Shown: positions 5,252-26,523 of the stretch, piece after piece
How the letters are laid out: every line of letters starts with the position of its first letter
Position numbering within the stretch: position 1 is the first letter of the stretch
Virus record (IMG/VR): IMGVR_UViG_3300008262_000052
Reading direction: 5' to 3' (one strand)
Origin: a virus
Taxonomy: Duplodnaviria > Heunggongvirae > Uroviricota > Caudoviricetes
Length of the DNA stretch: 64,000 nt
The notes under the pieces: model-generated
Told to the model about the DNA's origin: nothing
The model's database searches: none
What the model saw: the letters and a program-made list of their open reading frames with translations, nothing else
Position numbers and translations under genes: made by a program

Positions 5252-6382
5252 ATGAGCAGCGTATTTGATTTAGAAAACCGTGCAGATCATACACAGGTAA
5301 TGGCATTTCTCGACCCAACAGGTGGTCCTACTATCCAGCGTTATGACACGCTGAAGTACAAACAGTTTGATCAACTCACTGATAAACAACTTGGTTTCTT
5401 TTGGCGTCCTGAAGAGATCGACGTTTACAAAGACGCAACAGACTTCAAGGCTCTAACAGCACATGAACAACATATTTTTACCAGCAATCTAAAGCGTCAA
5501 ATTCTACTTGATAGTGTACAAGGTCGTGCTCCTGTAGAAGCATTTAGTCCTATTGTAAGTTTGCCAGAACTTGAAAACTGGATCCTGACTTGGACATTTT
5601 CTGAATCAATTCACAGCCGCAGTTATACACACATCATTCGCAACGTCTATGCCAATCCGAGCAAGATCTTTGACGAGATGATGGACATTGAAGAAATTAT
5701 CGATTGTGCAGAAGATATCAGCAAAAATTATGACGAACTGATTGAACTTGCAACTTGGTATAATTTGCTTGGCGCAGGCACTCACACAGTTAACGGTAAA
5801 GAAGTTGCAGTTGAGTTGTACGAACTAAAGAAGAAACTATGGCTTGCACTGATGAGTGTTAACATTCTAGAAGGTGTTCGCTTCTATGTTAGTTTTGCTT
5901 GTTCGTGGGCATTTGCTGAACTGAAGAAGATGGAAGGCAATGCTAAAATCATCAAATTTATTGCACGTGATGAGAACCTGCATCTTGCATCAACGCAGAT
6001 GCTGCTAAAACTATTGCAAAAAGACGATCCTGATTACGCCAAGATTGCAAAAGAAACAGAAGCAGATTCTATCAAGATGTTTGTTGATGCAGTTGATCAA
6101 GAAAAAACTTGGGCAGACTATCTGTTCAAAGGTGGCAGTATGATTGGTCTCAACACTCAACTGCTAACTGAATACATCGAGTGGATTGCTACCAAGCGTA
6201 TGAACATGGTTGGTCTCAAGAGCCCTTACACTGTAAAGAACAATCCATTGCCGTGGACACAAAAATGGATTTCCGGTTCGGAAGTTCAAGTTGCGCCACA
6301 AGAAACTGAGATCAGTTCATACACTGTGGGCGCTATCAAACAGGATGTAGGCACAGATACATTTAAAGGATTATCATTATGA
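5252..6382 (+). CDS. nrdB: ribonucleoside-diphosphate reductase beta subunit
   Basis: FFWRPEEIDV and a ferritin-like di-iron fold signature. 376 aa, directly downstream of nrdA. Confidence 0.93.
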   Translation: MSSVFDLENRADHTQVMAFLDPTGGPTIQRYDTLKYKQFDQLTDKQLGFFWRPEEIDVYKDATDFKALTAHEQHIFTSNLKRQILLDSVQGRAPVEAFSPIVSLPELENWILTWTFSESIHSRSYTHIIRNVYANPSKIFDEMMDIEEIIDCAEDISKNYDELIELATWYNLLGAGTHTVNGKEVAVELYELKKKLWLALMSVNILEGVRFYVSFACSWAFAELKKMEGNAKIIKFIARDENLHLASTQMLLKLLQKDDPDYAKIAKETEADSIKMFVDAVDQEKTWADYLFKGGSMIGLNTQLLTEYIEWIATKRMNMVGLKSPYTVKNNPLPWTQKWISGSEVQVAPQETEISSYTVGAIKQDVGTDTFKGLSL

Positions 6383-6630
6383 GCGAAACTATTGTATGGA
6401 GCAAGGACAACTGCCCCTATTGCGTTAAAGCAAAGCGTATGCTTGATGGTAAAGGTATACGCTACGAAGAAAGAAATATTACTGCTGGGCCTTGGACCAA
6501 GGAACAGTTGTTAGAAGCAGCACCTAATGCTAGAACTGTTCCACAAATTTTCCTACATGGAAATTACATTGGCGGATCAGACGCACTGGAAAAATACTTT
6601 GAAGATCATGACATGTGGAGAAACGATTAA
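6379..6630 (+). CDS. grx: glutaredoxin (T4 NrdC-like)
   Basis: CPYC active-site motif (DNCPYCVKAKRML). 83 aa. ATGA overlap with nrdB. Confidence 0.85.
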   Translation: MSETIVWSKDNCPYCVKAKRMLDGKGIRYEERNITAGPWTKEQLLEAAPNARTVPQIFLHGNYIGGSDALEKYFEDHDMWRND

Positions 6631-6920
6631 TGCTTATTGAAGCACCAATGAAGGACGGCGATACCGTTACTATTAAAACATTCAACGGCGATGAACTGAT
6701 TGCTAGACTTGTTGAAACCAAAACAAATACCTATGTGGTGTCCAAGCCATTGGCAATTATGGCAACACAGCAAGGACTGGGTCTAGGTCCTTACACATTT
6801 ACAGTTAATCCAGATTCCAAGATCGAGATTAACAAAAATGCAGTGATCTTTATTGCTAAGACTGACAGCGAAATGGCCAAGCAGTATATCAGCAGTACCA
6901 GCGGCATTAAGATGATATAA
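6615..6920 (+). CDS. hypothetical protein
   Basis: ORF overlapping the glutaredoxin stop. No motif recognised. Confidence 0.4.
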   Translation: MEKRLMLIEAPMKDGDTVTIKTFNGDELIARLVETKTNTYVVSKPLAIMATQQGLGLGPYTFTVNPDSKIEINKNAVIFIAKTDSEMAKQYISSTSGIKMI

Positions 6921-6929
6921 GGAGTTATT

Positions 6930-7220
6930 ATGGCAGAGTTGTGGGCAGTCGAAGGAGATCAAAATTCACACGGCGGCGGCGAGTTAAATGCCGACGGAGA
7001 TTCTAGTCCGCAAACTGTTAAAATAAACGGTAAACCTATTATAGTACACGAAAGCACAGCAGAACCAGATGGCTTCTTACATCCTGTGCCACCAACTGAC
7101 ACTGCCGAAGGATCCGGAACTGTTTTTTGTTACGGTGCACCTGTACACCGAAATGGTGATTTACGTAAATGTGGAGCAACTACAGTTGTAACAGGTCAGT
7201 CTACGGTCAAGGTTGGTTGA
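6930..7220 (+). CDS. PAAR-like small beta-rich protein (possible baseplate spike tip)
   Basis: 96 aa, Gly/His rich (NSHGGGE...CYGAPVHRNGDLRKCGATTVV), reminiscent of T4 gp5.4/PAAR proteins. RBS GGAG upstream. Confidence 0.35.
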   Translation: MAELWAVEGDQNSHGGGELNADGDSSPQTVKINGKPIIVHESTAEPDGFLHPVPPTDTAEGSGTVFCYGAPVHRNGDLRKCGATTVVTGQSTVKVG

Positions 7221-7245
7221 CAAACCTTAAAGTTACTGCTATAGT
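7217..7245 (+). promoter_or_regulatory. sigma70-like promoter TTGACA-N17-TATAGT
   Basis: TTGACA at 7217-7222, 17 nt spacer, TATAGT at 7240-7245, about 25 nt upstream of the 7269 gene. Confidence 0.6.
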
Positions 7246-7268
7246 AAGTTGTGAAACAAAGGTGAAAC

Positions 7269-7838
7269 ATGAAAAAGATTCTAACGGACTGTGACGGCGT
7301 GTTGCTGGACTGGGAAGGTCCATTCCACGAGTGGATGATTAAAAAAGGCTATACCAAGATCAAGCACGGTATCTACAACCTTGCTGAAGCATACGGTATC
7401 CCCAAAGAAGACAAGCATGACGTTGTACGTGAATTCAACGAAAGTGCTTGGATGTGTTGCTTGCCAGTGCTGCGAGATGCAGACACAGGTGTTGCTCGAT
7501 TGTTTGCAGAGGGCTACCGCTTTGACGTAATTACCAGTTTGAGCCTCGATCCATATGCCAAAGAACTGCGTTGGATCAACCTTAACCGTACTATCGGCAG
7601 TGCTGCGTTTGACGATCTCATCTGCCTTGATACTGGTGCAGACAAAGATGACGCCTTAGACAAGTACGAGCAGGGACATTGGTGGATCGAAGACAAACCA
7701 GAAAACTGCGACACTGGTTTGAAATACGGTCACCGTCCAATCCTTATTGATCATCCACACAATCAATGGTATCAAAACCCAGCGGTTGTTCGCGTAAACA
7801 ACTGGCAAGAAGTATGTGAGGTAATTCTCGGTGAGTGA
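7269..7838 (+). CDS. HAD-family 5'(3')-deoxyribonucleotidase-like protein
   Basis: N-terminal DCDGVLLDW (HAD motif I DxDxV). Size and pattern like the NT5C family. Confidence 0.55.
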   Translation: MKKILTDCDGVLLDWEGPFHEWMIKKGYTKIKHGIYNLAEAYGIPKEDKHDVVREFNESAWMCCLPVLRDADTGVARLFAEGYRFDVITSLSLDPYAKELRWINLNRTIGSAAFDDLICLDTGADKDDALDKYEQGHWWIEDKPENCDTGLKYGHRPILIDHPHNQWYQNPAVVRVNNWQEVCEVILGE

Positions 7839-8010
7839 CACGCACGAACAGTTAAAACTTGCCTTTGCTATCTATTTGCAGGAAACTGAAAAGTTCGAGC
7901 AAAAAGGTGTAAAGGCGAGTGCTGTTCGAGCAAGACAAGCACTACACGAAATGAAGGATCTAATCATTCAACGTCGCAAAGAGATACAAGAAAAGAAAAC
8001 TGACCTATAA
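7831..8010 (+). CDS. small basic protein (59 aa, GTG start)
   Basis: GTG overlapping the upstream stop (GGTGAGTGA). Lys/Arg-rich C-terminus KDLIIQRRKEIQEKK. Below the ORF-track cutoff. Confidence 0.25.
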   Translation: MSDTHEQLKLAFAIYLQETEKFEQKGVKASAVRARQALHEMKDLIIQRRKEIQEKKTDL

Positions 8011-8030
8011 TAAATACACTATAGAGGTAA

Positions 8031-8306
8031 ATGACGATGGATACACTTAACGATTTAAAAAAATATATTCAAGTTGAATACGGAGTTGAGCCCACTCAAT
8101 TTGACGGCAAAGTGTTGCGTTATCGTGCAATTTCCTTTGAACGCAACCTACCCAGTATTATGGTGCAGAATCAAAAAGTCAGCGATATGTGGACCGTGAA
8201 ACGTACTGGACACAGCATTGACTATTTCCGCACTGAAGAATTAAAATTGGCAGTAAATCCTGGCGGTAGTTTGCTATACTTTTTTATGCCCAAATCGAGG
8301 ATTTAA
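8031..8306 (+). CDS. hypothetical protein
   Basis: ORF with AGAGG RBS. No motif. Confidence 0.45.
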   Translation: MTMDTLNDLKKYIQVEYGVEPTQFDGKVLRYRAISFERNLPSIMVQNQKVSDMWTVKRTGHSIDYFRTEELKLAVNPGGSLLYFFMPKSRI

Positions 8307-8638
8307 TGGACAAAGAAAACATTGATTACCTTTACGGAATTGCACGTAAGGTAACGTTTTATTATAATGTAAGAAAAAAAGCAATTTCATACTTGCTCAA
8401 TAATAAAATCAACAGTAAGGATCTATCAGTTAACGTACTGTTAATGTCTGCAATTTGGGCTGCACATCAATTAAACGATGATTTAACAGAAGAAAACCTG
8501 CTGGTAAATTTTGGTTTAATTGCCAAGGACGATGCTGAATTTAGCAATACAATAATGCGACTGCACCCGGAACAGCATCACTTGACTCTTGAAGAAATTC
8601 TAGACATCATGGTGGAACGTTCCAGAAAAAACACTTGA
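8306..8638 (+). CDS. hypothetical protein
   Basis: ATGA-coupled to the previous ORF. Confidence 0.45.
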   Translation: MDKENIDYLYGIARKVTFYYNVRKKAISYLLNNKINSKDLSVNVLLMSAIWAAHQLNDDLTEENLLVNFGLIAKDDAEFSNTIMRLHPEQHHLTLEEILDIMVERSRKNT

Positions 8639-8685
8639 CAGATATCTATTGTATGCTATAACTCAATAGCAACACGGAGCAAGCA

Positions 8686-8925
8686 ATGAAAAAGTTTTCT
8701 AAACGCTACTACAAGCCCGAAGGTTGGGGACCGTTTAAAAACTCTTTGCTGCTTGGTTTAGAATGGACTGCCAAAGGCAGCAAAAACAACACATATTCCA
8801 TTACAGTTACTGAAAACGGATTCGAGTGCAGTTGCACTGGATTTACTTTCTATGGAAAATGCAAACACGTCACAGAAATTTTAGAAAGGTTTGACAATGA
8901 ACACAATCGGTCGTATGCACCATAA
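8686..8925 (+). CDS. SWIM zinc-finger small protein
   Basis: CSCTGFTFYGKCKH matches the SWIM CxCx(n)CxH pattern. Confidence 0.45.
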   Translation: MKKFSKRYYKPEGWGPFKNSLLLGLEWTAKGSKNNTYSITVTENGFECSCTGFTFYGKCKHVTEILERFDNEHNRSYAP

Positions 8926-9109
8926 TACTCCAAAGGAACTAATTGAGGAGTTTCTCAACCGAGGCGGCAAAGTTAAAGTTTGTTCAACAGGTGAAAGAAC
9001 AGAAGAAATTGAATATACTTCTGGATTCTACGGCAGAAAGAAAAAAAAGGTCGTTGTTGAAGATGTTGAAATTGAAGTTGAAGTTGAAGTCAGCGATGAC
9101 GAAAGTTAA
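8891..9109 (+). CDS. hypothetical acidic-tail protein
   Basis: Overlaps the upstream gene. C-terminus VEDVEIEVEVEVSDDES is encoded by a GAAGTT tandem repeat. Confidence 0.35.
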   Translation: MTMNTIGRMHHNTPKELIEEFLNRGGKVKVCSTGERTEEIEYTSGFYGRKKKKVVVEDVEIEVEVEVSDDES

Positions 9110-9305
9110 AGCACATCTAGTAGATGTGGACTGGCCAATCAAAATTAGCAATCCTTGCAGAGAAATCGCCCTTCCTGTATTGATGCGACCCATTGACATT
9201 ACATACCTACGGTTAAAAGGCATTGGTGTTTATGATTACACCGAAAGCCTAGAAATGGAAGATGAGTGGGTGGATCTTGAATCCTGCTACTCTTTTGGGA
9301 ATTAA
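9096..9305 (+). CDS. hypothetical protein
   Basis: Internal ATG of ORF 8943-9305, placed so that it overlaps the previous stop (GATGACGAAAGTTAA). Confidence 0.3.
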   Translation: MTKVKAHLVDVDWPIKISNPCREIALPVLMRPIDITYLRLKGIGVYDYTESLEMEDEWVDLESCYSFGN

Positions 9306-9319
9306 AAAATAAATACTCT

Positions 9320-9511
9320 GTGACAGCATACGAACACAAAGAAGCCAATAGATATTATTGGATTGTCAAAGGACACCTGATTCCAGATGCATGGAGTGAA
9401 AAAGACATCATGAGTGTGTACAACGGTTACTTTGAACGTATCTGGGGTAATCATGAAAACGTTGTTCACGAAGACGGGTTCGAAGAAGCATGGAGCAAAA
9501 AAACATGGTAA
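9320..9511 (+). CDS. hypothetical protein
   Basis: Last AT-rich ORF before the GC-rich island. Confidence 0.35.
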   Translation: MTAYEHKEANRYYWIVKGHLIPDAWSEKDIMSVYNGYFERIWGNHENVVHEDGFEEAWSKKTW

Positions 9512-9542
9512 GCACTCAAATAGCCCAGATGGACGCCGCCGA

Positions 9543-12422
9543 ATGAAAGACTTCATTATTCCCTCGGACCGCGATTTTGGCACGCCCTATGTGCGTTCGA
9601 CCGCTACGGTGACCCTGAACATCGACGGGTTCGATGTGACCGTGCCCAAAGACACCAGCATAATGCGAGCCGCCGCCGAGATTGGCATCACAGTGCCAAA
9701 GCTGTGCGCGACCGACAACCTTGAGGCCTTTGGCTCCTGCCGCCTGTGCCTTGTGGAAATCGAAGGCCGCAATGGCACGCCCGCCTCTTGCACCACGCCC
9801 GTTGCCCCCGGCATCCGGGTGAAAACCCAAACCGGCAATCTGAAACAACTGCGTCGCGGCGTAATGGAGTTGTATATCTCGGACCACCCGCTGGACTGCC
9901 TGACCTGCTCGGCCAATGGCGATTGCGAGTTGCAGGACATGGCTGGTGCCGTCGGCCTGCGCGATGTGCGCTATGAGGCGATCGACACCCACTTCCGCGC
10001 CAAGAACAACTCTGGCGAGGCCAATCCGCAGTGGAAAGCCAAGGACGAGAGCAACCCCTACTTCACCTATGACCCGGCGAAATGCATCGTCTGCTCGCGC
10101 TGTGTGCGGGCTTGTGAAGAGGTGCAGGGCACCTTTGCGCTGACCATCGAAGGTCGAGGCTTTGACAGCCGTGTGTCGTTCGGTGCAAAAACCGATGATG
10201 CGCTGGCCTCGGATTGCGTGTCCTGCGGTGCCTGCGTACAAGCCTGCCCGACAGCGACCTTGCAGGAAAAGTCGATCATCGAAATCGGCACACCGGAACG
10301 CTCTGTCATCACCACCTGCGCCTATTGCGGTGTGGGTTGCCAGTTTAAAGCTGAACTGCGCGGCGACGAGCTGGTGCGGATGGTCCCTTACAAGCACGGC
10401 AAGGCCAACCGTGGCCATTCCTGCGTCAAGGGCCGCTTTGCCTATGGCTATGCCTCCCACCAAGACCGCATCCTGTCGCCGATGATCCGCGACAGCATCA
10501 ACGACCCGTGGAAAGAAGTCTCGTGGGCCGAGGCGATGGAATTCGCCGCGAACCGCATGAAGGGCATAATTTCCAAATACGGGCAAAAGTCCGTGGGTGT
10601 GATCACCTCGTCGCGCTGCACCAATGAAGAAACCTATCTGGTGCAGAAACTGACTCGAGCAGTGTTCCTGAACAACAACACTGACACCTGCGCCCGCGTC
10701 TGCCATTCGCCCACCGGTTATGGCTTGGGTCAGACTCTTGGTACCAGTGCTGGAACGCAAGACTTTGATTCGGTAGAATATACAGATGTGGCCATTGTGA
10801 TTGGAGCCAATCCTGCTGTAGGTCACCCGGTCTTTGCAAGCCGTCTAAAAAAACGCCTGCGTAAAGGAGCGAAACTGATAGTCATTGACCCTCGCCGCAC
10901 TGAAATTGTAGTAAGCCCGCATATCAAAGCAGTACATCACCTTGCACTTACACCAGGCACCAACGTGGCCATGGTCACCGCACTGGCGCATGTGATCGTG
11001 ACCGAAAAGCTCTACAACGAAGAGTTCATCCGCACCCGCTGCGACTGGGATGAATTCCAAGACTATGCCGAGTTTGTCAGCCGCCCGAACCATTCGCCCG
11101 AAGCGGTGGAAATCCTAACCGGCGTCAAGGCCGAGGATGTCCGCGCCGCGGCCCGCACCTATGCCACCGGCGGCAACGGCTCGATCTACTACGGTCTGGG
11201 CGTGACGGAACATTCGCAAGGCTCGACCACCGTGATCGGCATTGCAAACTTGGCGATGATGACCGGCAACATTGGCCGTCCGGGCGTGGGTGTGAACCCG
11301 CTGCGTGGCCAAAACAACGTGCAAGGCTCGTGCGACATGGGATCCTTCCCGCACGAACTGCCGGGTTACCGCCATGTGAAGAACGACGATGTACGGGCAA
11401 TCTATGAAAACCTCTGGGGCGTGAAGATCGATAATGAGCCGGGCCTGCGTATCCCCAACATGCTGGATGCCGCCGTGGAGGGCACCTTCAAGGGGTTGTA
11501 CTGCCAAGGCGAAGACATCCTGCAATCTGACCCGGACACCAAGCACGTTGCGGCAGGTCTGGCAGCGATGGAATGCGTGATCGTGCATGACCTGTTCCTG
11601 AACGAGACCGCAAACTACGCCCATGTGTTCTTCCCTGGATCGAGTTTCTTGGAAAAGGACGGCACCTTTACCAACACTGAGCGCCGCATCAACATGGTAC
11701 GCAAGGTAATGGCTCCGAAGCCGGGTTATGCCGATTGGGAAGTCACCCAGTTGTTCGCTAACGCAATGGGTGCCAACTGGAACTACACCCACCCGGTGCA
11801 GATCATGGAAGAGATTGCCATGACCACGCCGTCCTTCGCCGGTGTCAGCTATGACAAGATCGAAGAGATGGGCTCGGTCCAGTGGCCCTGCAACGAAAAA
11901 GCGCCTGAAGGCACGCCTTTGATGCACGTCGATGCCTTCGTGCGTGGCAAAGGTCGGTTCATCAACACCGAATATATTGCCACTGATGAACGCACTGGCC
12001 CGCGTTTCCCGCTGCTACTCACCACGGGCCGTATCCTGTCGCAGTACAACGTGGGCGCCCAAACACGCCGCACAGCGAACAGTATATGGCATACTGAAGA
12101 TTTGTTGGAAATCCATCCCCACGATGCTGAAGTGCGCGGTGTCAAAGAGGGTGATTGGGTGCGTCTGGCCTCACGTGCCGGGGAAACCACCCTGCGAGCA
12201 ACACTGACCGACAAAGTCAATCCGGGCGTGGTCTACACCACCTTCCACCACCCCGACACCCAAGCCAATGTTATCACCACCGATTTCAGCGATTGGGCTA
12301 CCAACTGTCCAGAATACAAGGTTACGGCAGTTCAGGTGTCGCCCTCCAACGGCCCGTCGAAATGGCAAGAGGAATACAACGCTCAAGCCACTCTCTCACG
12401 TCGTATTGCAGCAGCGAAATGA
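9543..12422 (+). CDS. fdsA: formate dehydrogenase alpha subunit (FdsA/FdhF-type with N-terminal 2Fe-2S, 4Fe-4S and molybdopterin domains)
   Basis: N-terminus TVTLNIDGFDVTVPKDTSIMRAAAEIGITVPKLCATDNLEAFGSCRLCLVEIEGR (2Fe-2S NuoG-like). CxxCxxC ferredoxin motifs (CIVCSRCVRACEE, CVSCGACVQACP). Molybdopterin oxidoreductase body about 960 aa. About 60% GC against about 37% for the flanks. The true start is the ATG at 9543, because the upstream part of ORF 9414 is AT-rich phage DNA in frame by chance. Confidence 0.9.
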   Translation: MKDFIIPSDRDFGTPYVRSTATVTLNIDGFDVTVPKDTSIMRAAAEIGITVPKLCATDNLEAFGSCRLCLVEIEGRNGTPASCTTPVAPGIRVKTQTGNLKQLRRGVMELYISDHPLDCLTCSANGDCELQDMAGAVGLRDVRYEAIDTHFRAKNNSGEANPQWKAKDESNPYFTYDPAKCIVCSRCVRACEEVQGTFALTIEGRGFDSRVSFGAKTDDALASDCVSCGACVQACPTATLQEKSIIEIGTPERSVITTCAYCGVGCQFKAELRGDELVRMVPYKHGKANRGHSCVKGRFAYGYASHQDRILSPMIRDSINDPWKEVSWAEAMEFAANRMKGIISKYGQKSVGVITSSRCTNEETYLVQKLTRAVFLNNNTDTCARVCHSPTGYGLGQTLGTSAGTQDFDSVEYTDVAIVIGANPAVGHPVFASRLKKRLRKGAKLIVIDPRRTEIVVSPHIKAVHHLALTPGTNVAMVTALAHVIVTEKLYNEEFIRTRCDWDEFQDYAEFVSRPNHSPEAVEILTGVKAEDVRAAARTYATGGNGSIYYGLGVTEHSQGSTTVIGIANLAMMTGNIGRPGVGVNPLRGQNNVQGSCDMGSFPHELPGYRHVKNDDVRAIYENLWGVKIDNEPGLRIPNMLDAAVEGTFKGLYCQGEDILQSDPDTKHVAAGLAAMECVIVHDLFLNETANYAHVFFPGSSFLEKDGTFTNTERRINMVRKVMAPKPGYADWEVTQLFANAMGANWNYTHPVQIMEEIAMTTPSFAGVSYDKIEEMGSVQWPCNEKAPEGTPLMHVDAFVRGKGRFINTEYIATDERTGPRFPLLLTTGRILSQYNVGAQTRRTANSIWHTEDLLEIHPHDAEVRGVKEGDWVRLASRAGETTLRATLTDKVNPGVVYTTFHHPDTQANVITTDFSDWATNCPEYKVTAVQVSPSNGPSKWQEEYNAQATLSRRIAAAK

Positions 12423-12554
12423 CGAACAAGCATACACAAAAAAGTTCTTGACTGGTTGACTGTTTTAGCATATAAATAACTTGTGATGTTGAAGTTCACT
12501 GAACACGGATGAGACCCGGGGGCGGCACCCGGCAGGTCCACCATAAGAAGACTG

Positions 12555-12716
12555 ATGATGTATGTATATTACGATGAGAGTAAAGACAGAAGCGAAGATC
12601 TTGATTGGAAAAAGTACTGTGATGAACAGGTACCGACTGAGCAAGAACAGATCTTTTGGGGTAATGTAAGTATTATATTTGTTTTAGTATTAGGATTAAT
12701 CGCAGTATTTTTATGA
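12555..12716 (+). CDS. small single-TM protein (53 aa)
   Basis: ATGATG start downstream of a TATAAATA box at 12469. Hydrophobic C-terminus IIFVLVLGLIAVFL. Confidence 0.3.
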   Translation: MMYVYYDESKDRSEDLDWKKYCDEQVPTEQEQIFWGNVSIIFVLVLGLIAVFL

Positions 12717-12900
12717 TGGGCCTGACATAGGATCGATCAACGAACTAGGCAGGATGGAGTCACCGGGATCTAAGCGCCGTTACCGCGAAGAAAATGACAA
12801 CTGCAAATGAAAATTTTGCACCTTCTGAGTTTGCTCTAGCAGCATAACTACAGGGCGCCCGGGGAGAGCGTAGCAACAGAATCTCCTCATAAATACTATT

Positions 12901-13056
12901 ATGCACACAGATTACTATGTTTACGAATACCTGCGAGAAGATGGCACTCCCTACTATGTAGGCAAAGGTCGTTGTGGAAGATATAAAGAACGTCACGTCA
13001 CTCTAAAGCCAACAGTGGAACAGCCAAAGAAAAACACTCGTCGTAAAACTAAATAG
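12901..13056 (+). pseudogene. GIY-YIG homing-endonuclease N-terminal fragment (51 aa)
   Basis: YYVYEYLREDGTPYYVGKG...R..Y matches the GIY-(10)-YIG plus conserved Arg half-motif. The ORF stops before the catalytic Glu/Asn region. Confidence 0.4.
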
Positions 13057-13060
13057 TTGT

Positions 13061-13264
13061 ATGGACGACAACGATAACCCAGCACCAGAAGAAAAATTTG
13101 AAATCAGCCTAAGACTGTTGGGCAATGAAATCATTGCTATGGCACTGCTGAGTCAAAGCAAAAAGAAAAATTGGGTTTTATTTGGTTTACTTGCATTCAT
13201 ACTGATTACTGTCATACTTGAAAGACTGGTACCAGTAATTGAAAAAATGCAAGGTGTTATGTAA
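13061..13264 (+). CDS. small membrane protein
   Basis: Hydrophobic helix WVLFGLLAFILITVIL. Confidence 0.35.
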   Translation: MDDNDNPAPEEKFEISLRLLGNEIIAMALLSQSKKKNWVLFGLLAFILITVILERLVPVIEKMQGVM

Positions 13265-13413
13265 CTGTTGCACATTGAACACACATTTAAAAAGCATTTT
13301 CAAAAAACCCTAGATATCTGTTCAAACTAGTTGTATTTTACAGAATATCTGTTATAACTAATATTACGAATGAGCAAGAAATTTGCCATTATAATAACAA
13401 AGGGAAAAACTTT

Positions 13414-14205
13414 ATGAAACTATTACTTACTACTGTTGCAGCCATTGCATTTGCTGGTGCTGCATTTGCTGCTGATTTTGGCGGCACTGTTGGCGCTGAA
13501 TTCACCAAAAACGTTGCTGGCAATTTTGTTGCAACTCCAACTGTTGAATTGTCATTTGGTCACAAAGCCGAAGGCGCAACTGCATTTGGCGCTGTTGGCG
13601 TAGAAGCAGACGGCAGCGATCTTGTTGTTGACTCGTGGCATGTTGGTGTAGCATTTGGCGGCACTAGTGTTAGTTTTGGCGATCAAGGCGACTTGTTTGG
13701 CTTTGGCGGCTTAGAAGTTGTTGGCGGCGATACTCTTGCTGATCCAGCAGACGATCACGAGAGTGTGATTGTTAGCCACGGTGCAGTTGAAGTTCTTGTT
13801 GGTTTAACTGACATCAGCACCAATGTAGGCGACATTGAAAACGTTCAGATTGCTTATAGCAACGACTACGGTAAGATTGATGTAGCCGGAGCACTTGACT
13901 ACAATCTTGACACCGAGGACACTACTGTTGCAGTAGCAACTGGTGTTGATGTTAGCGAAGCACTTTATGCTAACGTAACTGTTACTTATGCTGATGAATT
14001 TGCTTATGAAGCAATGGGTACTTACGGTGCAATGGACGCACTAGACGTTTCTGCTTTCATCAACGGTGACGAAACCGACATGGCACAGAACATCGGTGCT
14101 GGCGTTGTCTACACCAAGGATAGCCTAAGTGCATTTGCTGAAGTTGGTTACAATCTAGACACTGAAGAAACTACTCCTGCAATTGGCGTATCATTTAACT
14201 TCTAA
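13414..14205 (+). CDS. secreted beta-barrel / porin-like protein
   Basis: Signal peptide MKLLLTTVAAIAFAGAAFA|ADFGG. Gly/Ala/Val-rich alternating pattern. C-terminal ...GVSFNF with terminal Phe as in OM beta-barrels. Strong RBS AAAGGG. Followed by a strong terminator. Confidence 0.5.
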   Translation: MKLLLTTVAAIAFAGAAFAADFGGTVGAEFTKNVAGNFVATPTVELSFGHKAEGATAFGAVGVEADGSDLVVDSWHVGVAFGGTSVSFGDQGDLFGFGGLEVVGGDTLADPADDHESVIVSHGAVEVLVGLTDISTNVGDIENVQIAYSNDYGKIDVAGALDYNLDTEDTTVAVATGVDVSEALYANVTVTYADEFAYEAMGTYGAMDALDVSAFINGDETDMAQNIGAGVVYTKDSLSAFAEVGYNLDTEETTPAIGVSFNF

Positions 14206-14225
14206 TCTACGCTAAAATACAAAGT

Positions 14226-14262
14226 CAAAAAGGGTCCTATAAAATAGAACCCTTTTTTTTTT
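14226..14262 (+). terminator. rho-independent terminator
   Basis: AAAGGGTC-loop-GAACCCTTTTTTTTTT hairpin with a T10 run. Confidence 0.8.
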
Positions 14263-14298
14263 GTATTCAATAAATACCTACATAATGGAGGATCGGCA

Positions 14299-14556
14299 AT
14301 GGCCAAAAAAGGCGGAAAGAGTTCGGGTTTTACATCTCAAGGACTTCACAGCAATGTTTCAGCAAGAATTACAAATCAGTTAAGAAGCGAGTATCTTGCA
14401 TCTAGCGAGCGTGTAATAAATCAATTACAGGCCTGGAAAAAGAACAAGAATGTAGTTCTTACTATCGAAAATCCAAACAAGAACGAAACTAACAAGCGAT
14501 TTATCAAAGTCAAAGCATTTGACTATTGGGGTTCTCCAAAGAAGTTTCAATCTTAA
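14299..14556 (+). CDS. hypothetical protein
   Basis: RBS GGAGGA, basic 85 aa. Confidence 0.45.
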   Translation: MAKKGGKSSGFTSQGLHSNVSARITNQLRSEYLASSERVINQLQAWKKNKNVVLTIENPNKNETNKRFIKVKAFDYWGSPKKFQS

Positions 14557-14557
14557 G

Positions 14558-14586
14558 TTGACATCGGGCTCCATATGTGTTACAGT
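14558..14586 (+). promoter_or_regulatory. sigma70-like promoter TTGACA-N17-TACAGT embedded in a palindrome
   Basis: TTGACA at 14558, TACAGT at 14581. GGGCTCCATA (14565-74) and TATGGAGCC (14599-607) form a 9/10 inverted repeat spanning the -10 box to the SD. Confidence 0.45.
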
Positions 14587-14612
14587 ATTTGTATCAACTA
14601 TGGAGCCTTTCT

Positions 14613-14990
14613 ATGAGTATGCACCTTGTGGGACCATACCTTACTACTACAAAATACAATTCAAAGAAGAAGACTTCTAACAGTAAAAAGTTAGAAGCCG
14701 CAAAAGCAGATCATGAAACGTGGCTTAAGAAAATGGGTGTAGGCAAAGCAAAATTGCCTGTGGACAAAAAAGGTCAACGTGTAGGCATTTACGATATTCC
14801 TGATTATTCAACTGGTCCTAGAATGACCAGCGATCGTGTAGCAGGTCACGGGCCTGCTAAAGAACCTATGGTTTATAGCGGAGAACGTCAACTGCTTGGT
14901 GTCGCTACAATGCATAAAAGCAATATGGTTCCTATCTTTGCAGACAAGAAACAAGATGCAACAGATATTGCACAAATGCGTAGAAATTAA
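14613..14990 (+). CDS. hypothetical protein
   Basis: Start moved to the ATG 6 nt after the GGAG SD (internal Met of ORF 14577). Confidence 0.45.
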   Translation: MSMHLVGPYLTTTKYNSKKKTSNSKKLEAAKADHETWLKKMGVGKAKLPVDKKGQRVGIYDIPDYSTGPRMTSDRVAGHGPAKEPMVYSGERQLLGVATMHKSNMVPIFADKKQDATDIAQMRRN

Positions 14991-15030
14991 TCTACTGCTA
15001 TATTGCTAAAAATGGTAGGATAAATATTAC

Positions 15031-16800
15031 ATGGGTTTAGGAATTCTTACAATGCTAACAGCATTGAGTATCAGTGCTGTTGCAATATACTATTCTGTTG
15101 CAGGTCTCGTAGCAATATTTGCTGCGGCAGCAGTGCCTATCATCATAATGGGCAGTATACTTGAAATAGCAAAATTAGTTACCGTAGTGTGGTTACACTA
15201 TTATTGGGAACATGCAGTATGGTGGTTAAAAACTTATCTAACCATATCTGTTGCTGTTCTGATGTTGATCACATCGATGGGTATTTTTGGATTTTTGTCC
15301 AAAGCACACATCGATCAAACTGCCAGTGCCAAAGACGGTCTAGCAAGATTAGAACAGATAGACAGTCAAATACTTAGACAACAAGACGTCATTGCCAAGG
15401 CAGAGCAAGAAATCGAACAACTTGAAGTAGCCGGCACAGATCGCGACACAGAAATACAAGCACAGATTGACAAAGAACAAGAACGTATCGACAGTGCATA
15501 CACTCGTATTCAACCAGCAATTGATGAACAAAACGTTATTATCACCAAAGAAGAACAACGCCTTGGCGGTGGACTATCTTTGTATGAAGACCAACTAAAC
15601 ACAATCACTGGCAATCTACAAAGCATAGAACAATACATTGCAACTGACAACATCAAAGCATTACAAGCATTGGTAGGTGTTCGTGCAGATGGTCAATTAG
15701 GTCCTGCAACTACACAAGCAATTGACTCATACAGAACTGCACAGACTGCTGAAAAACAACGTCTAGCAGAATTAATTGCACAAGAAAGCAGTAAACTATC
15801 ATCACCTGTAATTGATACTGCTCGAGCAGAGATTCAAAGACTACGCAGTTTAGCCGAAACAGAGATTGCAAACTCCAACGAATTAATCAACAGACTTAGA
15901 CAGCAACTAGGTGTAACCGACGAAGCAAAAGTTGCTGCTCAAGTAGAAAAACAAAATAAGATTATTGTCGAGGCTGAAACTGTTGTATCTGCCTTAACAG
16001 AACAGAAATATGGACTTGAGTCTGAATATAGAAAACTAGAAGCAGAAGTAGGTCCTATCAAGTATCTTGCAGAATTTGTATACGGCAAATCTGAAGATAA
16101 AGATCTTTTAGAAGAAGCAGTCCGTTGGGTAATTATTTTAATTATTTTTGTGTTTGATCCATTGGCTGTGTTACTTCTAATTGCAAGTCAGCACACATTT
16201 AATTTTCAAAGAGAACTTCGCAAGGAGTCTCTTCGGCAAAACAGTGTTGATACAAACAAGGATGTAAACAATGATGTATCTGATAGACCTGATAATGAAC
16301 AATCAGATAGTAAAACACCCGCAGCCAGTACAACAAGCGATAGTACTGCCAGCACCACCTCAGAGAACGCCAGCACCGACGATAAAGGATCTGAGACGGA
16401 TGATACCATGTCTGGAACAAGATCTCAAAACGGAGGACTAATCGATGATGGACCTATACAGAAAATTAACGCTGATGCAGATGCAGGCCTGGGAGAACTT
16501 CGTGCAGAAGACCCTGCTACCACCGCAATTGAAGATGATGCAGGATTGGAATCGAGTGAAGTACCAATTGATGCAGATAGACAAAAGCGAATAGACGAAC
16601 TAGTTGCTATTGAAAATCAAGCAGACACTAAACTTGCCAAGATACAGTGGAAACAAGATCATCCAGACTTGACCATCAAAGAGTTTAAAGAAGCATATAT
16701 AAATGGTGAGATAGATAGTCTACCTTGGGAAGGGTATTCTCAAAACTCCGAGCAAAGTGAAAACAGCATCTGGCGTAAAATAAGAAACAAAGATGAATGA
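15031..16800 (+). CDS. membrane protein with coiled-coil and peptidoglycan-binding-like domain
   Basis: Four N-terminal TM helices. LVGVRADGQLGPATTQAIDSYR matches a PG_binding_1-type motif. Long coiled coil. A second TM segment (VIILIIFVFDPLAVLLLIAS). Acidic Ser/Thr-rich tail. Confidence 0.55.
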   Translation: MGLGILTMLTALSISAVAIYYSVAGLVAIFAAAAVPIIIMGSILEIAKLVTVVWLHYYWEHAVWWLKTYLTISVAVLMLITSMGIFGFLSKAHIDQTASAKDGLARLEQIDSQILRQQDVIAKAEQEIEQLEVAGTDRDTEIQAQIDKEQERIDSAYTRIQPAIDEQNVIITKEEQRLGGGLSLYEDQLNTITGNLQSIEQYIATDNIKALQALVGVRADGQLGPATTQAIDSYRTAQTAEKQRLAELIAQESSKLSSPVIDTARAEIQRLRSLAETEIANSNELINRLRQQLGVTDEAKVAAQVEKQNKIIVEAETVVSALTEQKYGLESEYRKLEAEVGPIKYLAEFVYGKSEDKDLLEEAVRWVIILIIFVFDPLAVLLLIASQHTFNFQRELRKESLRQNSVDTNKDVNNDVSDRPDNEQSDSKTPAASTTSDSTASTTSENASTDDKGSETDDTMSGTRSQNGGLIDDGPIQKINADADAGLGELRAEDPATTAIEDDAGLESSEVPIDADRQKRIDELVAIENQADTKLAKIQWKQDHPDLTIKEFKEAYINGEIDSLPWEGYSQNSEQSENSIWRKIRNKDE

Positions 16801-17182
16801 AATTACTGTAATTACACCTCCGGATGTGTTATACAATGATGTATTATCAATATTAGTAATACATCCTAGAGATGAACTTAAATCTATACTCAACAACATT
16901 TTAATAAACGCTGTAGAACCAGTTAATTTGTTTTTATACGAATTAAAAGCCGATCACGATATTGAATGGTTATTGGCACAGGTTAAAAGATGTGATGTAG
17001 TTGTTCTAGATTTAGATAGTACAGAACCATTTACATACGAATTCGCATCTTATATTATTGCACAGCCAAATACTTTTTACTTGACAAGTGACAATATTAC
17101 ACCATATAATTTATTAAGCAAGAACAGAATTTACGATTTGTCTTGGTTAGAAACAGTTTTAAACAGAGGAAATAATGAGTAA
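16793..17182 (+). CDS. hypothetical protein
   Basis: ATGA-coupled ORF. Confidence 0.45.
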   Translation: MNEITVITPPDVLYNDVLSILVIHPRDELKSILNNILINAVEPVNLFLYELKADHDIEWLLAQVKRCDVVVLDLDSTEPFTYEFASYIIAQPNTFYLTSDNITPYNLLSKNRIYDLSWLETVLNRGNNE

Positions 17183-17411: not shown

Positions 17412-18536
17412 ATGCGGTTAGAAACCGACGTTAAATTAGATTATAAGGACGTTCTTATTCGTCCTAAAAGAAGCACACTAGGCAGTCGTAGTGAAGTAGA
17501 CCTAGAACGTAGATTTAGTTTTAGAAATTACGTTCCGAGATTTCCAGATAACATCGAAGATTACCACTATCGTGGCGTTCCTATTATGGCCGCTAACATG
17601 GACGGTGTTGGCACATTTGACATGGCTGACACACTAGCAAAATCCGGTACATTTACTTGCCTTGTTAAAACATACAGTGCTCAAGAACTTATAGATTTCT
17701 TTAAAGGCAACAGCATTCGTACTGAACATGTTGCTATGAGCATTGGCGTTAGCAATGCAGACTACGACAAATTTTGCAAGGTTTATCTTAATGTTAGCGA
17801 ACAACTAAAGTATCTGTGTATTGACGTTGCAAATGGTTACACAGAAACATTTGTAAATCATGTACGAAATATTCGCGAACGTTATCCACATATTGTAATC
17901 ATTGCTGGTAATGTTGTTACTGGCGAAATGACAGAGGAATTAATTCTTGCTGGAGCAGATATTGTTAAAGTCGGCATTGGTCCTGGCAGTGTTTGTACTA
18001 CTCGTATACAAACTGGGGTCGGCTATCCCCAACTATCCGCCATCATCGAGTGTGCGGATGCTGCTCATGGTCTTGGTGGTCATGTTATTGCCGATGGCGG
18101 TTGTACTTGCCCTGGCGATGTTGCTAAAGCCTTTGCTGCTGGTGCTGACTTTGTGATGCTGGGCGGGATGCTGGCCGGACATGATGAAGGCGGTGGTGAA
18201 GTCATTGCCAAATACTACCGAACAAATCAACTACAGCACGATGGTGTAAATCTTGTTGTAGAAGAAAAACGGTTTGTCAAGTTCTATGGTATGAGCAGTA
18301 AAGCAGCAAACGACAAACATTTTGGCGGCTTGAAAGATTATCGAGCGTCAGAAGGCAGGGAGGTGTTAGTGCCTTACAGAGGTCCTGTGAACAACACAGT
18401 ACAGGAACTGCTTGGCGGTATTAGATCTACCTGCACATATGCAGGCGCTAAGACATTAAAACAACTTAGCAAATGCACAACCTTTGTTCGTGTAACACAA
18501 CAATTTAACGGTGTGTATGCGAACAATGGTAAATAA
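17412..18536 (+). CDS. guaC: GMP reductase
   Basis: Near-collinear with bacterial GuaC: [82 protein letters not shown]. Confidence 0.92.
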
Positions 18537-19087: not shown

Positions 19088-19396
19088 ATGAGCACCGCAG
19101 TTGACATAAAAATTGATGAAAAAATTAAAGTAGAAGTTAAAGAACCTAGTTTATACAAAGTTATTTTTCTAAACGATGACAAAACACCAATGGAGTTTGT
19201 TGTTAGTTTATTGATCGAACTATTTAAACATTCTGAAAACACTGCACAAACACTAACAATGAAAATTCACGAAGAAGGTAGTGGAGTAGTAGGTGTTTAT
19301 AGTTACGAAATTGCAGAACAAAAATCTCTCGAAGCAACTAGCCTATGCAGAGACAACGGATTTCCTCTACGCATTAGAGTTGAAGAGGAACTATGA
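19088..19396 (+). CDS. clpS: ATP-dependent Clp protease adaptor ClpS
   Basis: SLYKVIFLNDDKTPMEFVV.LL.ELF closely matches the ClpS core ([25 protein letters not shown]). Confidence 0.85.
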   Translation: MSTAVDIKIDEKIKVEVKEPSLYKVIFLNDDKTPMEFVVSLLIELFKHSENTAQTLTMKIHEEGSGVVGVYSYEIAEQKSLEATSLCRDNGFPLRIRVEEEL

Positions 19397-19920
19397 GCAA
19401 ACTAAAAGAACTCACTTGGGAAGTACATCAACGAGCAGAGCGTACTGAGTTCGCTTGCAAACTACTTAAAGGTCTAACCCCTGAAGAGTATCACAAATAT
19501 CTCTACAATCAATATATGATTTATTCAATACTGGAAGATGCTGCTAAATCATTAGTACCCGAACTCAAGAGTATAAACAGAGCAGAACGAATCTACGCCG
19601 ATCTTAGAGAAATTGAAAAAGAATATGCTATCGGCACAACATCTGCACTACTGATGCCGGTTGTACGTGAATATGAACGTCATGTTATAACTTTAGACAG
19701 GCAAGGAATACTTGCACACATATATGTTCGTCATTTTGGCGATATGTACGGCGGGCAAATGATTAGAAAACGCAATCCTGGTTCGGGCACCATGTACGAT
19801 TTTGATAACGTAGAAGAACTCAAAGCAACTGTTAGATCTATGTTAAACGACTCAATGGCAGAGGAAGCAAATCGTTGTTTTGAATTTGCAATGCAGTTGT
19901 TTGTTGAGTTAGATGAGTAA
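19393..19920 (+). CDS. hemO: heme oxygenase
   Basis: ILAHIYVRHFGDMYGGQMIRKR matches the HO signature ([21 protein letters not shown]). N-terminal helix with conserved His (EVHQRAERTEF). 175 aa, a short phage-type HO. Confidence 0.75.
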   Translation: MSKLKELTWEVHQRAERTEFACKLLKGLTPEEYHKYLYNQYMIYSILEDAAKSLVPELKSINRAERIYADLREIEKEYAIGTTSALLMPVVREYERHVITLDRQGILAHIYVRHFGDMYGGQMIRKRNPGSGTMYDFDNVEELKATVRSMLNDSMAEEANRCFEFAMQLFVELDE

Positions 19921-21085
19921 ACTTTTTGTTCATGTTAGATTACCGTACTTTAGTGATGTAATGGATGATGCACCACAATATGAAGAATGCTTTTCTGACA
20001 TGCAAATATTTTTAAAAAACATAAAGTCTCGTGGAATAAATGAACAAATTGTATTTGTTTTAAATCATATGTGGGAAATAACATTTGTTAAAGATTTAAA
20101 CTTTTTACACAACTTTTTTAAAAACAAACTCAAAAATTACAATGTAGATTTTTTTATTTTATATAGTGTATGTGCAGATGATCAAGATGATCTTCCAAAA
20201 AATATTATAAAATACAATTTTTTCCAAAGCAAGACAGTACATGCAACAACCATCAACAATCAACAAACAGCAAAAAAATGGGATAAATCCAAGTTTAGAG
20301 GATTGTTACTTACAGGAAAAGCGCATAAGCCTCAAAGACTAATACCATTAAAATTTTTATTAGATAATAACTTGTTAAATGAAATTGACATGGAATGGAG
20401 TTTCTTTTATTATAAAGAATATGCAGTAGATATTAAGAGATTTTTAAATATCAACAATGGCGAATTGCAACACTTTGTTTCTTCTGCTTCAAGAAATCCA
20501 GACAACATCAAAGTTTCACAGTACGGAAATCTTTTTAGTTATGATGGATTTCCCTACAGTCAGAATCTATATTCGGATACTTCATGGTCACTAATTTCCG
20601 AAACAGGAGCAAACAGATCTGTCTTATGGATTACTGAAAAAACATATAGAGCCATAATAAATAGACATCCGTTTATATTGTTTGGTCAACCCGGATCAGA
20701 AGAACACTTAAGATCTCAAGGATTTAAAACATTTGAATATTGTTTTCCAATAAATTATGACAACATAACTTCCAACGAACATCGATTCGAAGCAGCATTT
20801 AAAAACATTTGTCATATAAGAGAAAACTGGAAAAATTTAGATTTTGAGAGAATAAACGACGATGTAAATCACAATTACAATGTTTTATTTAATAGTGTTG
20901 TAAATGAGCAAAAACAACTAATTAAAAAATTAAAATTCAATGACGGGGATAAAATTTGTGACATTCTACTTTATGATCTTTTTCACTTCGGCCATGTCTT
21001 CGGGGCCGATGCTGAGGTATCTACTGTAGAAGACGTTGTAAACGGAAAAAAAAGTATAATTTATTATTATTGGGATATCAGATGA
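19913..21085 (+). CDS. hypothetical protein (very AT-rich, Asn/Phe/Lys-rich)
   Basis: 390 aa ORF overlapping the hemO stop. No recognisable motif. Confidence 0.5.
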   Translation: MSKLFVHVRLPYFSDVMDDAPQYEECFSDMQIFLKNIKSRGINEQIVFVLNHMWEITFVKDLNFLHNFFKNKLKNYNVDFFILYSVCADDQDDLPKNIIKYNFFQSKTVHATTINNQQTAKKWDKSKFRGLLLTGKAHKPQRLIPLKFLLDNNLLNEIDMEWSFFYYKEYAVDIKRFLNINNGELQHFVSSASRNPDNIKVSQYGNLFSYDGFPYSQNLYSDTSWSLISETGANRSVLWITEKTYRAIINRHPFILFGQPGSEEHLRSQGFKTFEYCFPINYDNITSNEHRFEAAFKNICHIRENWKNLDFERINDDVNHNYNVLFNSVVNEQKQLIKKLKFNDGDKICDILLYDLFHFGHVFGADAEVSTVEDVVNGKKSIIYYYWDIR

Positions 21086-23480: not shown

Positions 23481-23945
23481 ATGAAAAAAATCTCGATAGT
23501 CATGTTGATGCTATTACCGACATTTGCAAATGCAGAATTAGTTCATACATTTAAAAATCCAAGTTTTAGCGGTGAAGGGTATAGTAATCATGTGTTGGGT
23601 ATTGAACAACTAGGGTTCAATAGACAAAAAGATATTGACGATGCTATTGCTGCTGAACAAGAACGCATAGAGCGAGAATTAGAAAACTCAACACTCAACA
23701 AATTTTTACGCAACATAGAAAGTAGAATATATGCTACACTATCCAAGCAGATGGTGGATGCTATGTTCGAGTCTTGTGCTGATGAAACAGGAGCAACTTG
23801 TCCGACCAGTGGTACAACTGAAATAGAAGGCAGTACTATTAGTTGGAGCAAAGACACTGTTACCGGTAGTATTACTTTGGAGGTTGTAAGCGATGAAGGA
23901 ACAACCACTATTACTATACCTGGCGCAGGGGAGTTTAACTTTTGA
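23481..23945 (+). CDS. csgF: curli assembly protein CsgF homologue
   Basis: Signal peptide. Mature N-terminus HTFKNPSFSGEGYSNHVLGIEQLGFN matches CsgF [26 protein letters not shown]. Confidence 0.7.
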   Translation: MKKISIVMLMLLPTFANAELVHTFKNPSFSGEGYSNHVLGIEQLGFNRQKDIDDAIAAEQERIERELENSTLNKFLRNIESRIYATLSKQMVDAMFESCADETGATCPTSGTTEIEGSTISWSKDTVTGSITLEVVSDEGTTTITIPGAGEFNF

Positions 23946-24721: not shown

Positions 24722-24733
24722 GGGCAATAAAAA

Positions 24734-26520: not shown

Positions 26521-26523
26521 CAA

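Follow-up and report, generated by a model that had tools for sequence, protein, structure and literature searches.

Cyanophages that carry psbA provide just one part of photosystem II, its D1 core, and rely on the host for the partner proteins. For the formate dehydrogenase (FDH) FdsABG, NAD+ reduction needs the beta subunit bearing flavin mononucleotide (FMN), and the alpha subunit alone cannot perform it. Herein, a gene for an FDH alpha subunit, fdsA, is described in a stretch of 64,000 nucleotides from a virus of the class Caudoviricetes (IMG/VR record IMGVR_UViG_3300008262_000052), referred to below as the window. A deep-ecotype group of pelagimyophages has been reported to hold "a formate dehydrogenase" among its unique genes (Zaragoza-Solas et al., 2020; PMC7029224). 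In addition, T4-like Methylophilaceae phages from Lake Baikal carry methanol dehydrogenase together with auxiliary metabolic genes (AMGs) of the S-adenosylmethionine (SAM) cycle, and FDH was not reported from them (Coutinho et al., 2020; PMC7678222). The window phage resembles the latter as a T4-type freshwater phage with a gene of one-carbon (C1) oxidation, but it holds fdsA and no methanol dehydrogenase within its 64 kb. A literature search pairing fdsA with phage found nothing relevant. The gene is probably a host-derived AMG that was captured alone from the middle of an operon, lies in a variable slot of the phage genome, has been kept by selection and likely supplies the FDH of the host.

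The gene fills an island of foreign composition. The window has a mean GC content of 41%, which rises to 57.6% (0.576) within fdsA; across the 552 other 2880-bp windows of the 64 kb, the mean was 0.411 with a standard deviation of 0.024 and a maximum of 0.468, so that the gene stands out with z = 7.0. The GC content at third codon positions (GC3) is 0.691, against a mean of 0.332 over 16 other phage open reading frames (ORFs). The island is filled by exactly one intact ORF, which ends with a TGA stop at 12420-12422; by homology its start is the ATG at 9543, and the program-made ORF list extends it to a GTG at 9414. The first-pass annotation, made from the letters alone, had reported a single-gene, GC-rich island with GC3-biased codon usage, and both points are borne out; its figure of about 60% GC was too high.

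The encoded protein has the domain set of a complete FdsA-type alpha subunit with an N-terminal Fe-S module, as had been proposed. Six Pfam domains score above their gathering thresholds, in the order Fer2_4, NADH-G_4Fe-4S_3, Fer4 dicluster (2x[4Fe-4S]), Molybdop_Fe4S4, Molybdopterin and Molydop_binding, and the NCBIfam equivalog TIGR01591 ("formate dehydrogenase subunit alpha") is matched with 927 bits against a cutoff of 666.25. FdsA of Rhodobacter capsulatus, from the NAD+-dependent Mo-FDH FdsABG(D) (PDB 6TG9/6TGA), shares the domain order and is collinear over the full length (6tg9_A; residues 1-958 against 1-957, 1700 bits). Furthermore, the active-site stretch CARVCHSPTGYGL (CARVCH; Cys387-His388) and the arginine motif NPLRGQNNVQGSCDMG (NPLRGQNNVQG) are exactly those of 6tg9_A, and 28 of 28 cysteine columns are shared with the bacterial copies. 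Following the literature on R. capsulatus FDH, Cys387 is presumably the Mo ligand, with the adjacent histidine, and the arginine motif is presumably catalytic. Unlike R. capsulatus fdsA, the phage gene stands without fdsG, fdsB, fdsC or fdsD: no homologue of FdsB, FdsG, FdsC or FdsD was found in the window (tblastn, E<=1) or in the extra flanks, in keeping with the earlier remark that partner subunits are missing. A fluoride-riboswitch-like match within fdsA was rejected as noise (19 bits against a gathering threshold, GA, of 34).

The source of the gene can be traced to a bacterial operon. The closest FdsA (P0001, 97% amino acid identity) is encoded on a bacterial contig of 63% GC from freshwater Rhodobacteraceae (L011), in the order LysR, then fdsG-fdsB-DUF4287-fdsA-fdsC(FdhD)-fdsD, with uvrC and a modABC-like molybdate transporter as flanks. 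Two further copies, at 94% and 93%, lie in the same operon (L012, L013), one of them in a Rhodobacteraceae metagenome-assembled genome. Named relatives in Tabrizicola, Cypionkella and Rhodobacter sp. reach 86-88%, and species representatives of the GTDB reach at most 87-88% (Tabrizicola, Rhodobacter). The Rhodobacterales-like donor suggested at first pass is upheld by the match of 97% in protein and 91% in DNA, and the donor lineage found in this way appears to be a freshwater Rhodobacteraceae fds operon.

The ends of the transferred segment can be placed to within a few nucleotides. By blastn, homology to L011 (91.3% nucleotide identity) is confined to window positions 9523-12428, corresponding to L011 positions 5979 to 8886; the likeness therefore covers the whole gene, 20 nt upstream and about 6 nt downstream. 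The borders are nearly gene-precise, as had been stated, with offsets of 20 nt rather than 13 on the 5' side and of 6-12 nt rather than none on the 3' side. Beyond these borders lie the two ends of an ORF of about 55 amino acids that is intact in the relatives L022 and L025 (Table 1). Since the start of this ORF lies left of the insert and its end right of it, the interior of a small phage gene appears to have been replaced. No direct or inverted repeats and no target-site duplication bracket positions 9523-12434; this favors illegitimate recombination, perhaps with later trimming. Mobile cassettes of T4-type phages can be bracketed by repeated promoter-stem-loop elements (PeSL-type shuffling). 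Around fdsA, no repeated regulatory element was found on both sides; the sole promoter-like element lies on the right and belongs to the neighboring transfer-messenger RNA (tmRNA) gene. Identity to the closest donor varies along fdsA between 0.83 and 0.97; the minimum falls in a divergent patch at about 10743-11043, and neighboring stretches are at 0.97. This patch has a GC content of 0.50 and four clustered amino acid changes (positions 455-464). It may indicate that the true donor was a mosaic relative of the sampled contig, or that change was locally faster.

The insertion recurs in independent records. At least 20 contigs are on record with exactly this 959-aa protein. Seven contigs with the gene in the same phage context were fetched, from different samples and at least three assemblers: JGI 3300008107 and 3300042691, the ENA MEGAHIT assemblies ERZ27248034 and ERZ27247984, NCBI GCA_031545155.1 and GCA_031546225.1, and Logan SRR7182476. 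Over 5-22 kb across both junctions, they are 99.99-100% identical to the window, differing by no or one single-nucleotide polymorphism (SNP). The phage embedding is likewise reproduced by synteny with ten or more IMG/VR relatives. These observations constitute a strong, if indirect, refutation of an assembly artefact and indicate that fdsA is a genuine insertion.

Once in the phage, the gene seems to have moved toward the composition of its new genome. GC3 is 0.78-0.80 in bacterial fdsA genes (0.80 in L011), 0.69 in the phage copy and 0.33 in phage ORFs. When substitutions were polarised with two bacterial outgroups, the phage branch showed 141 lineage-specific changes, overwhelmingly GC>AT (116 GC>AT, 9 AT>GC and 16 composition-neutral), against 45 on the donor branch (18, 9 and 18, respectively). 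The 116 GC>AT changes fall 12/4/100 on codon positions 1/2/3, compared with 38/30/47 expected from the available G/C sites (p = 3e-22). Changes on the phage branch were synonymous in 116 cases and nonsynonymous in 25. The pairwise dN/dS between phage and donor copies is 0.057, against 0.065-0.071 among bacterial copies, with a dS of 0.37. In addition, the 29 amino acid differences favor variable columns (mean conservation 0.61 against 0.86 overall), and of the 513 columns that are near-invariant among 83 bacterial FdsA sequences, only two are altered. The AT-biased third-position changes and the low dN/dS point to long residence of fdsA in an AT-rich phage, about a quarter of the way to phage GC3, and to purifying selection that is, as judged from these ratios, as strong as in bacteria. 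Of the first-pass claim of a very recent acquisition, "recent" holds and "very" does not, given the dS and the fall of GC3 from about 0.80 to 0.69.

The carrier appears to be a Melnitz/pelagimyophage-like T4-type freshwater phage. Upstream of fdsA lie nrdA, nrdB, glutaredoxin, PAAR and Hc1 genes; downstream follow the tmRNA, ribosomal protein S21, GMP reductase, heme oxygenase and bilin reductase, a CsgG/FecR module with a CHASE2-cyclase, and 26 transfer RNAs (tRNAs). The cyclase shares 48.6% identity with its counterpart in Methylophilales phage Melnitz and 34% with the one in Pelagibacter phage HTVC008M, and the order CsgG-curlin-FecR-cyclase is that of the Melnitz annotation. A separate freshwater lineage is suggested, because the reported freshwater SAR11 myophages are without the curli-like module. 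IMG/VR relatives, fetched with a 589-aa marker, share 67-77% identity in that marker and 54-95% over other shared genes. They are syntenic on both sides, running from nrdB to p63, through a slot, to the tmRNA, p67, a porin-like gene, p589, S21 and GMP reductase. In these syntenic relatives fdsA is absent, and the slot contains pstS with a terminator (L015, L017) or a small ORF only (L022, L025). Further cargo, namely alternative oxidase (AOX), metallophosphoesterase and glycosyltransferase genes, lies downstream of the tmRNA in L017 and L019. No near-identical phage genome was found in INPHARED by megablast with either flank, and the FdsA matches obtained there by tblastn were rejected as phage homologues, being bacterial contamination or unrelated molybdoenzymes.

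Several neighboring features of the same genome were recorded alongside. A PstS-like phosphate-binding protein, of the kind found in the slot of L015 and L017, is encoded elsewhere in the genome of the fdsA phage, about 9.5 kb left of the window start (L132, 533-1495). The region 19393-21765 is a cassette of heme oxygenase, a 390-aa ORF and a ferredoxin-dependent bilin reductase (PcyA/PcyX-like); the middle ORF has no Pfam, PHROG or NCBIfam match and is not AlaS. The curli-like module (CsgG, a FecR-domain protein and large repeat proteins), followed by the CHASE2-adenylate/guanylate cyclase, occupies 23942-31289 in synteny with Melnitz. Two further metabolic genes encode an ornithine/arginine/DAP decarboxylase-like protein (43221-44348) and GMP reductase (17412-18536; NF003470, 534 bits with the cutoff at 397). 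The tRNA genes form three clusters (45068-47614, 59680-61011 and 61808-63710) and include two tRNA-Pro(tgg) and two tRNA-Ser(tga); since the Melnitz paper gives four tRNAs for Melnitz, 26 is unusually many for the phage group.

Table 1. Features at the fdsA locus and its flanks (positions in the window)
Feature	Positions	Strand	Basis or comparison
p63, conserved phage gene, left flank of the slot	9320-9511	+	amino acid identity 85-87% in L015, L017, L020-24 and 49% in L025/L027; always directly before the slot
Relic of the first 5 codons of a ~55-aa phage gene	9505-9521	+	ATGGTAAGCACTCAAAT aligns with ATGGTAGCCAGCAAAAT (L025) and ATGGTTAGTAGAG (L022)
Bacterial 5' flank, 20 nt: 3' end of the DUF4287 gene and ribosome-binding region; much diverged, 2-nt deletion	9523-9542	+	blastn to L011
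fdsA, 959-aa molybdenum (bis-molybdopterin guanine dinucleotide, bis-MGD) formate dehydrogenase alpha subunit with N-terminal 2Fe-2S + 4x[4Fe-4S] module	9543-12422	+	Pfam, TIGR01591, 6tg9_A
Bacterial 3' flank relic (start of donor fdsC), certain to 12428, possible to ~12434	12423-12434	+	blastn; weak similarity beyond, with GC>AT changes
3' relic of the ~55-aa phage gene, then TTGACT (12448-12453)-N17-TATAAATA (12471-12478)	12435-12478	+	aligns with L025 "GTCAAAAAAACGTGTTGACA...TATAAATA" and L015 "TTCTTGACTG...GCATATAAATAACTTG"
Two-piece (permuted) alpha-type tmRNA gene	12444-12891	+	RF01849 95.6 bits (GA 50); RF04321 89.2 bits (GA 47)
53-aa ORF with hydrophobic C-terminal helix, within the ~170-nt insertion of the tmRNA intervening segment (expected to be excised)	12555-12716	+	no family match
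51-aa fusion ORF, putative decayed endonuclease relic	12901-13056	+	GIY-YIG/NUMOD3-type N-terminal motif, then the C-terminus of the conserved 67-aa phage gene
p67, conserved right-flank gene	13061-13264	+	50-58% amino acid identity in L015/16 and L025/27; syntenic
263-aa secreted porin-like protein, right flank	13414-14205	+	47-73% amino acid identity in L015/16, L017, L019 and L025/27

The right border of the island is set by the tmRNA gene, which itself lies outside it. Its acceptor piece ends with CCACCA at 12538-12543, the coding piece begins at about 12718, and the tag ORF at 12803-12847 encodes ANENFAPSEFALAA followed by a stop. A tmRNA gene is found at the same place in L015, L017, L019 and L025; ARAGORN missed the gene in the window, yet it found the homologues in L017, L019 and L025. 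The intervening segment of the window tmRNA is longer than in both Rfam models by about 170 nt, and the 53-aa ORF within this insertion is either a real gene or an insertion relic. The TATAAATA box just after the island had been described as late-promoter-like; it is instead part of a TTGACT-N17-TATAAATA promoter-like element that precedes the tmRNA and is kept in relatives without fdsA.

Immediately downstream of the tmRNA, the traces of a mobile endonuclease are less clear. Synechococcus phage S-SRM01 has a NUMOD3 endonuclease-like protein whose N-terminus is 70% identical, over 23 aa, to residues 5-27 of the 51-aa ORF (E = 6e-10 pairwise, 3e-3 database-wide), and the ORF is read as a fusion relic because residues 30-51 belong to the C-terminus of the conserved 67-aa phage gene. 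The ORF gave no Pfam or NCBIfam match, and a direct BLASTP comparison with the intact L017 endonuclease yielded nothing significant. The decayed GIY-YIG fragment reported at first pass is thus weakly supported, by a short NUMOD3-type N-terminal match. In L017, an intact SegE_GIY-YIG+NUMOD3 gene (1124-2497) at the same locus interrupts a first copy of the tmRNA acceptor and is followed by a complete tmRNA (2560-2945), which suggests that an endonuclease invaded the tmRNA locus of that phage. A history of homing endonucleases at this locus is plausible and could have helped to spread neighboring cargo; any endonuclease role in the original capture of fdsA is speculation.

FdsA relatives were also found on three IMG/VR contigs of marine, Melnitz-like phages (L008, L009 and L129), again as the alpha subunit only. 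These genes belong to the same enzyme family, occur in the same broad phage group and lie in a variable region, as does the window gene. However, they represent another lineage (66% identity) in another genome slot, and their GC content equals that of the phage (about 40%), so that they form no island, whereas the window gene does. Because source and genomic position differ while both are alpha-only, fdsA alone has been captured at least twice in this phage group. The nearest bacterial operon to the marine clade, fdsA-fdhD-fdsD, shows 76% identity.

The marine contigs add several observations of their own. L008 (an IMG/VR 3300025120 contig) encodes CsgG, FecR, curlin, the cyclase and a glutamine riboswitch, with an insert of about 10 kb between curlin and cyclase. 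The inserted region at 8020-16820 holds a dehydrogenase of the pyrroloquinoline quinone (PQQ) methanol/ethanol family (TIGR03075, 608 bits), FdsA (TIGR01591, 885 bits), an outer-membrane barrel and a quinoprotein-associated SoxYZ-like carrier, which places both ends of the oxidation of methanol to CO2 on one phage. The possibility that L008 is a bacterial contig, raised by its CsgG, FecR, PQQ dehydrogenase and SoxYZ genes, was rejected after comparison with the Melnitz annotation, which identifies it as a Melnitz-like phage. The FdsA clade of L008 has many marine variants at 91-100% identity, on contigs of up to 184 kb. In L129 (8692-12835) and L009, an adenosylhomocysteinase gene lies directly upstream of the same marine FdsA clade; in L129 this pairing echoes the SAM-cycle AMGs of the Baikal phages. 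A slot common to marine and freshwater fdsA was considered, as both genes are followed by one for an outer-membrane beta-barrel, and was discarded: the barrels and small ORFs are not detectably similar, and the L008 insert lies between curlin and cyclase.

Altogether, the phage probably acquired fdsA, and no other gene, from within the fdsG-fdsB-DUF4287-fdsA-fdsC-fdsD operon of a Rhodobacteraceae cell in fresh water. Illegitimate recombination probably placed it in a hypervariable slot between a small conserved phage gene and the tmRNA, replacing the interior of the ~55-aa ORF. Synonymous sites have since drifted toward the AT-rich composition of the phage, with the protein held by purifying selection. 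During infection, FdsA would be made within a long rightward transcription unit together with the upstream genes, as suggested by the lack of a promoter or terminator found for fdsA itself. FdsC/FdhD and the molybdenum cofactor (Moco) pathway of the host would load bis-MGD and the Fe-S clusters, and FdsA would assemble with host FdsB/FdsG(/FdsD). In this way, NAD+-linked formate oxidation could be sustained or raised after host shut-off, providing NADH and energy for respiration and for the nucleotide-reducing enzymes of the phage (nrdAB-grx, 3-6 kb upstream). This specific scheme of co-transcription, host maturation, pairing with host FdsB/G and NADH supply is offered tentatively, at a little less than even confidence. 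The sequences show the insertion and its junctions, the donor operon, the amelioration, the purifying selection, the intact cofactor ligands and the lack of partner genes in about 84 kb; from these, we infer expression, assembly with host subunits, the direction and benefit of the reaction, and the identity of the host with the donor lineage.

A broader generalization is possible and is put forward with less confidence still: Pelagimyophage/Melnitz-like phages may repeatedly capture only the catalytic subunit of the soluble Mo-FDH of the host (at least twice, in marine and freshwater settings) and form hybrid phage-host FDH during infection in a psbA-like strategy. The freshwater case would be caught mid-amelioration, its donor operon still recognizable, and would imply that a T4-type phage of 41% GC infects freshwater Rhodobacteraceae of 62% GC. 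As with psbA, the host energy enzyme has several subunits, of which the phage would contribute just the one that is catalytic and bears the cofactors. The two differ in that FdsA is a Mo/Fe-S enzyme that needs dedicated maturation (FdhD/FdsC, Moco).

Several points weigh against the view of fdsA as a selected supplier of the host FDH. For fdsA itself, neither a promoter nor a terminator rose above chance, and directly upstream there is only a poor Shine-Dalgarno sequence. No fdsB, fdsG, fdsC, fdsD or Moco genes were found in about 84 kb (the window and about 10 kb of flank per side) of a genome of at least 148 kb, so FDH activity would depend wholly on a compatible host complex. Both altered near-invariant columns, A712T and the last residue, E959K, are otherwise invariant. 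If the true donor is unsampled, some of the measured divergence may be older than the transfer. Moreover, all phage copies are near-identical, and a within-phage population signal of selection is consequently absent. Finally, the cultured relatives infect OM43 and SAR11, not Rhodobacteraceae, and the alpha-type tmRNA was discarded as a guide to the host, as Melnitz has one yet infects OM43.

This last point is the basis of the strongest alternative, in which the phage now infects something other than the donor lineage. It would then have acquired the gene in an earlier or occasional host, or else from another phage, and FdsA would now pair with distant partners in a freshwater methylotroph or a SAR11-LD12-type cell. 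Besides the hosts of the closest cultured relatives, the gap between a phage GC of 41% and a donor GC of 62% favors such a history, as does the proposal that this phage group switches hosts across classes (PMC9004378). Against it, assemblies labelled GROS21-1 hold both a donor-type bacterial contig and a scaffold of 122.8 kb that contains a right-end portion of the window (the exact 237-aa protein in the same gene order), fdsA lying outside the stretch of the scaffold that was fetched. In addition, lytic T4-type phages normally take DNA from the infected cell, and strong purifying selection continued after the transfer. The 26 tRNAs, mostly with anticodons for A/U-ending codons, would be of use to an AT-rich phage within a GC-rich host and fit a host of the donor type, toward which the identity of the donor also points. 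On balance, a host other than the donor lineage is rather unlikely. An attempt to read the host from the pstS cargo of relatives was abandoned, as the matches were filled up by phage-like metagenomic sequences, at 83-93% identity, that carry no taxon names.

A second alternative accepts selection and assigns FdsA another role: that of a stand-alone formate:acceptor oxidoreductase passing electrons along its Fe-S chain to ferredoxin-type acceptors of phage enzymes such as heme oxygenase and bilin reductase, of a reverse CO2-to-formate enzyme for formate-dependent purine synthesis, or of a factor titrating host FdsBG or Moco. The alpha subunit alone does bear the Mo site and five Fe-S clusters, R. 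capsulatus FDH is reversible, and genes for hemO and a ferredoxin-dependent bilin reductase (7-9 kb downstream), GMP reductase and nrdAB-grx lie nearby. The Baikal study also argues that phage C1 genes feed purine synthesis (PMC7678222). However, there is no evidence for an alternative acceptor; the 97% identity to the donor, with conservation across the whole protein, fits retention of the native quaternary contacts; and titration alone would not require an intact active site. Such a role is considered improbable.

Less tenable still is a neutral passenger on its way to decay, for instance one co-converted with the nearby homing endonuclease or tmRNA locus. The hypervariable slot beside a putative endonuclease relic, the missing partner subunits, the degraded ribosome-binding region and the clonality of all phage copies would be compatible with it. 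Nevertheless, the 2880-nt ORF has stayed intact through at least 100 phage-type substitutions; the synonymous excess, the codon-position skew, the low dN/dS and the avoidance of conserved columns described above are not those of a decaying gene, and marine relatives made independent alpha-only captures, so that this explanation is very improbable. Lastly, the assembly chimera (bacterial reads mis-joined to phage) or engineered or cloned insert raised at first pass has next to no chance of being correct: the composition switch is abrupt and almost gene-precise, and flanking repeats and mobile-element signatures are absent, but the same junctions recur in the seven contigs, phage-ORF relics flank the insert on both sides, and bacterial copies are at most 91% identical in DNA, a 9% divergence running 13:1 GC>AT that cannot arise by misassembly.

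The fdsA of this window, read as a host-derived AMG, offers a clean and datable case of metabolic-gene capture by a lytic T4-type phage, in which the donor operon and the empty site are recognizable, the breakpoints can be placed to within a few nucleotides, and the sequence reveals how fast and in which direction amelioration under purifying selection has run. It also illustrates that a metagenomic phage contig with a sharply bounded GC island of one gene is not necessarily misassembled. The gene is neither an artefact nor categorically new, as it extends the known borrowing of host genes by such phages; it is noteworthy for the size and cofactor load of the enzyme, for the recoverable donor, empty site and breakpoints, and for the independent alpha-only capture in marine phages. 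If hybrid complexes do form, psbA-like subunit replacement would extend to a molybdenum-cofactor enzyme of C1 metabolism, and phage FdsA should complement an fdsA deletion in an R. capsulatus FDH expression system. With this capture, a large Mo/Fe-S enzyme subunit joins the list of phage-borne energy genes, a sign that formate (C1) oxidation may be under viral modulation in both lakes and oceans.

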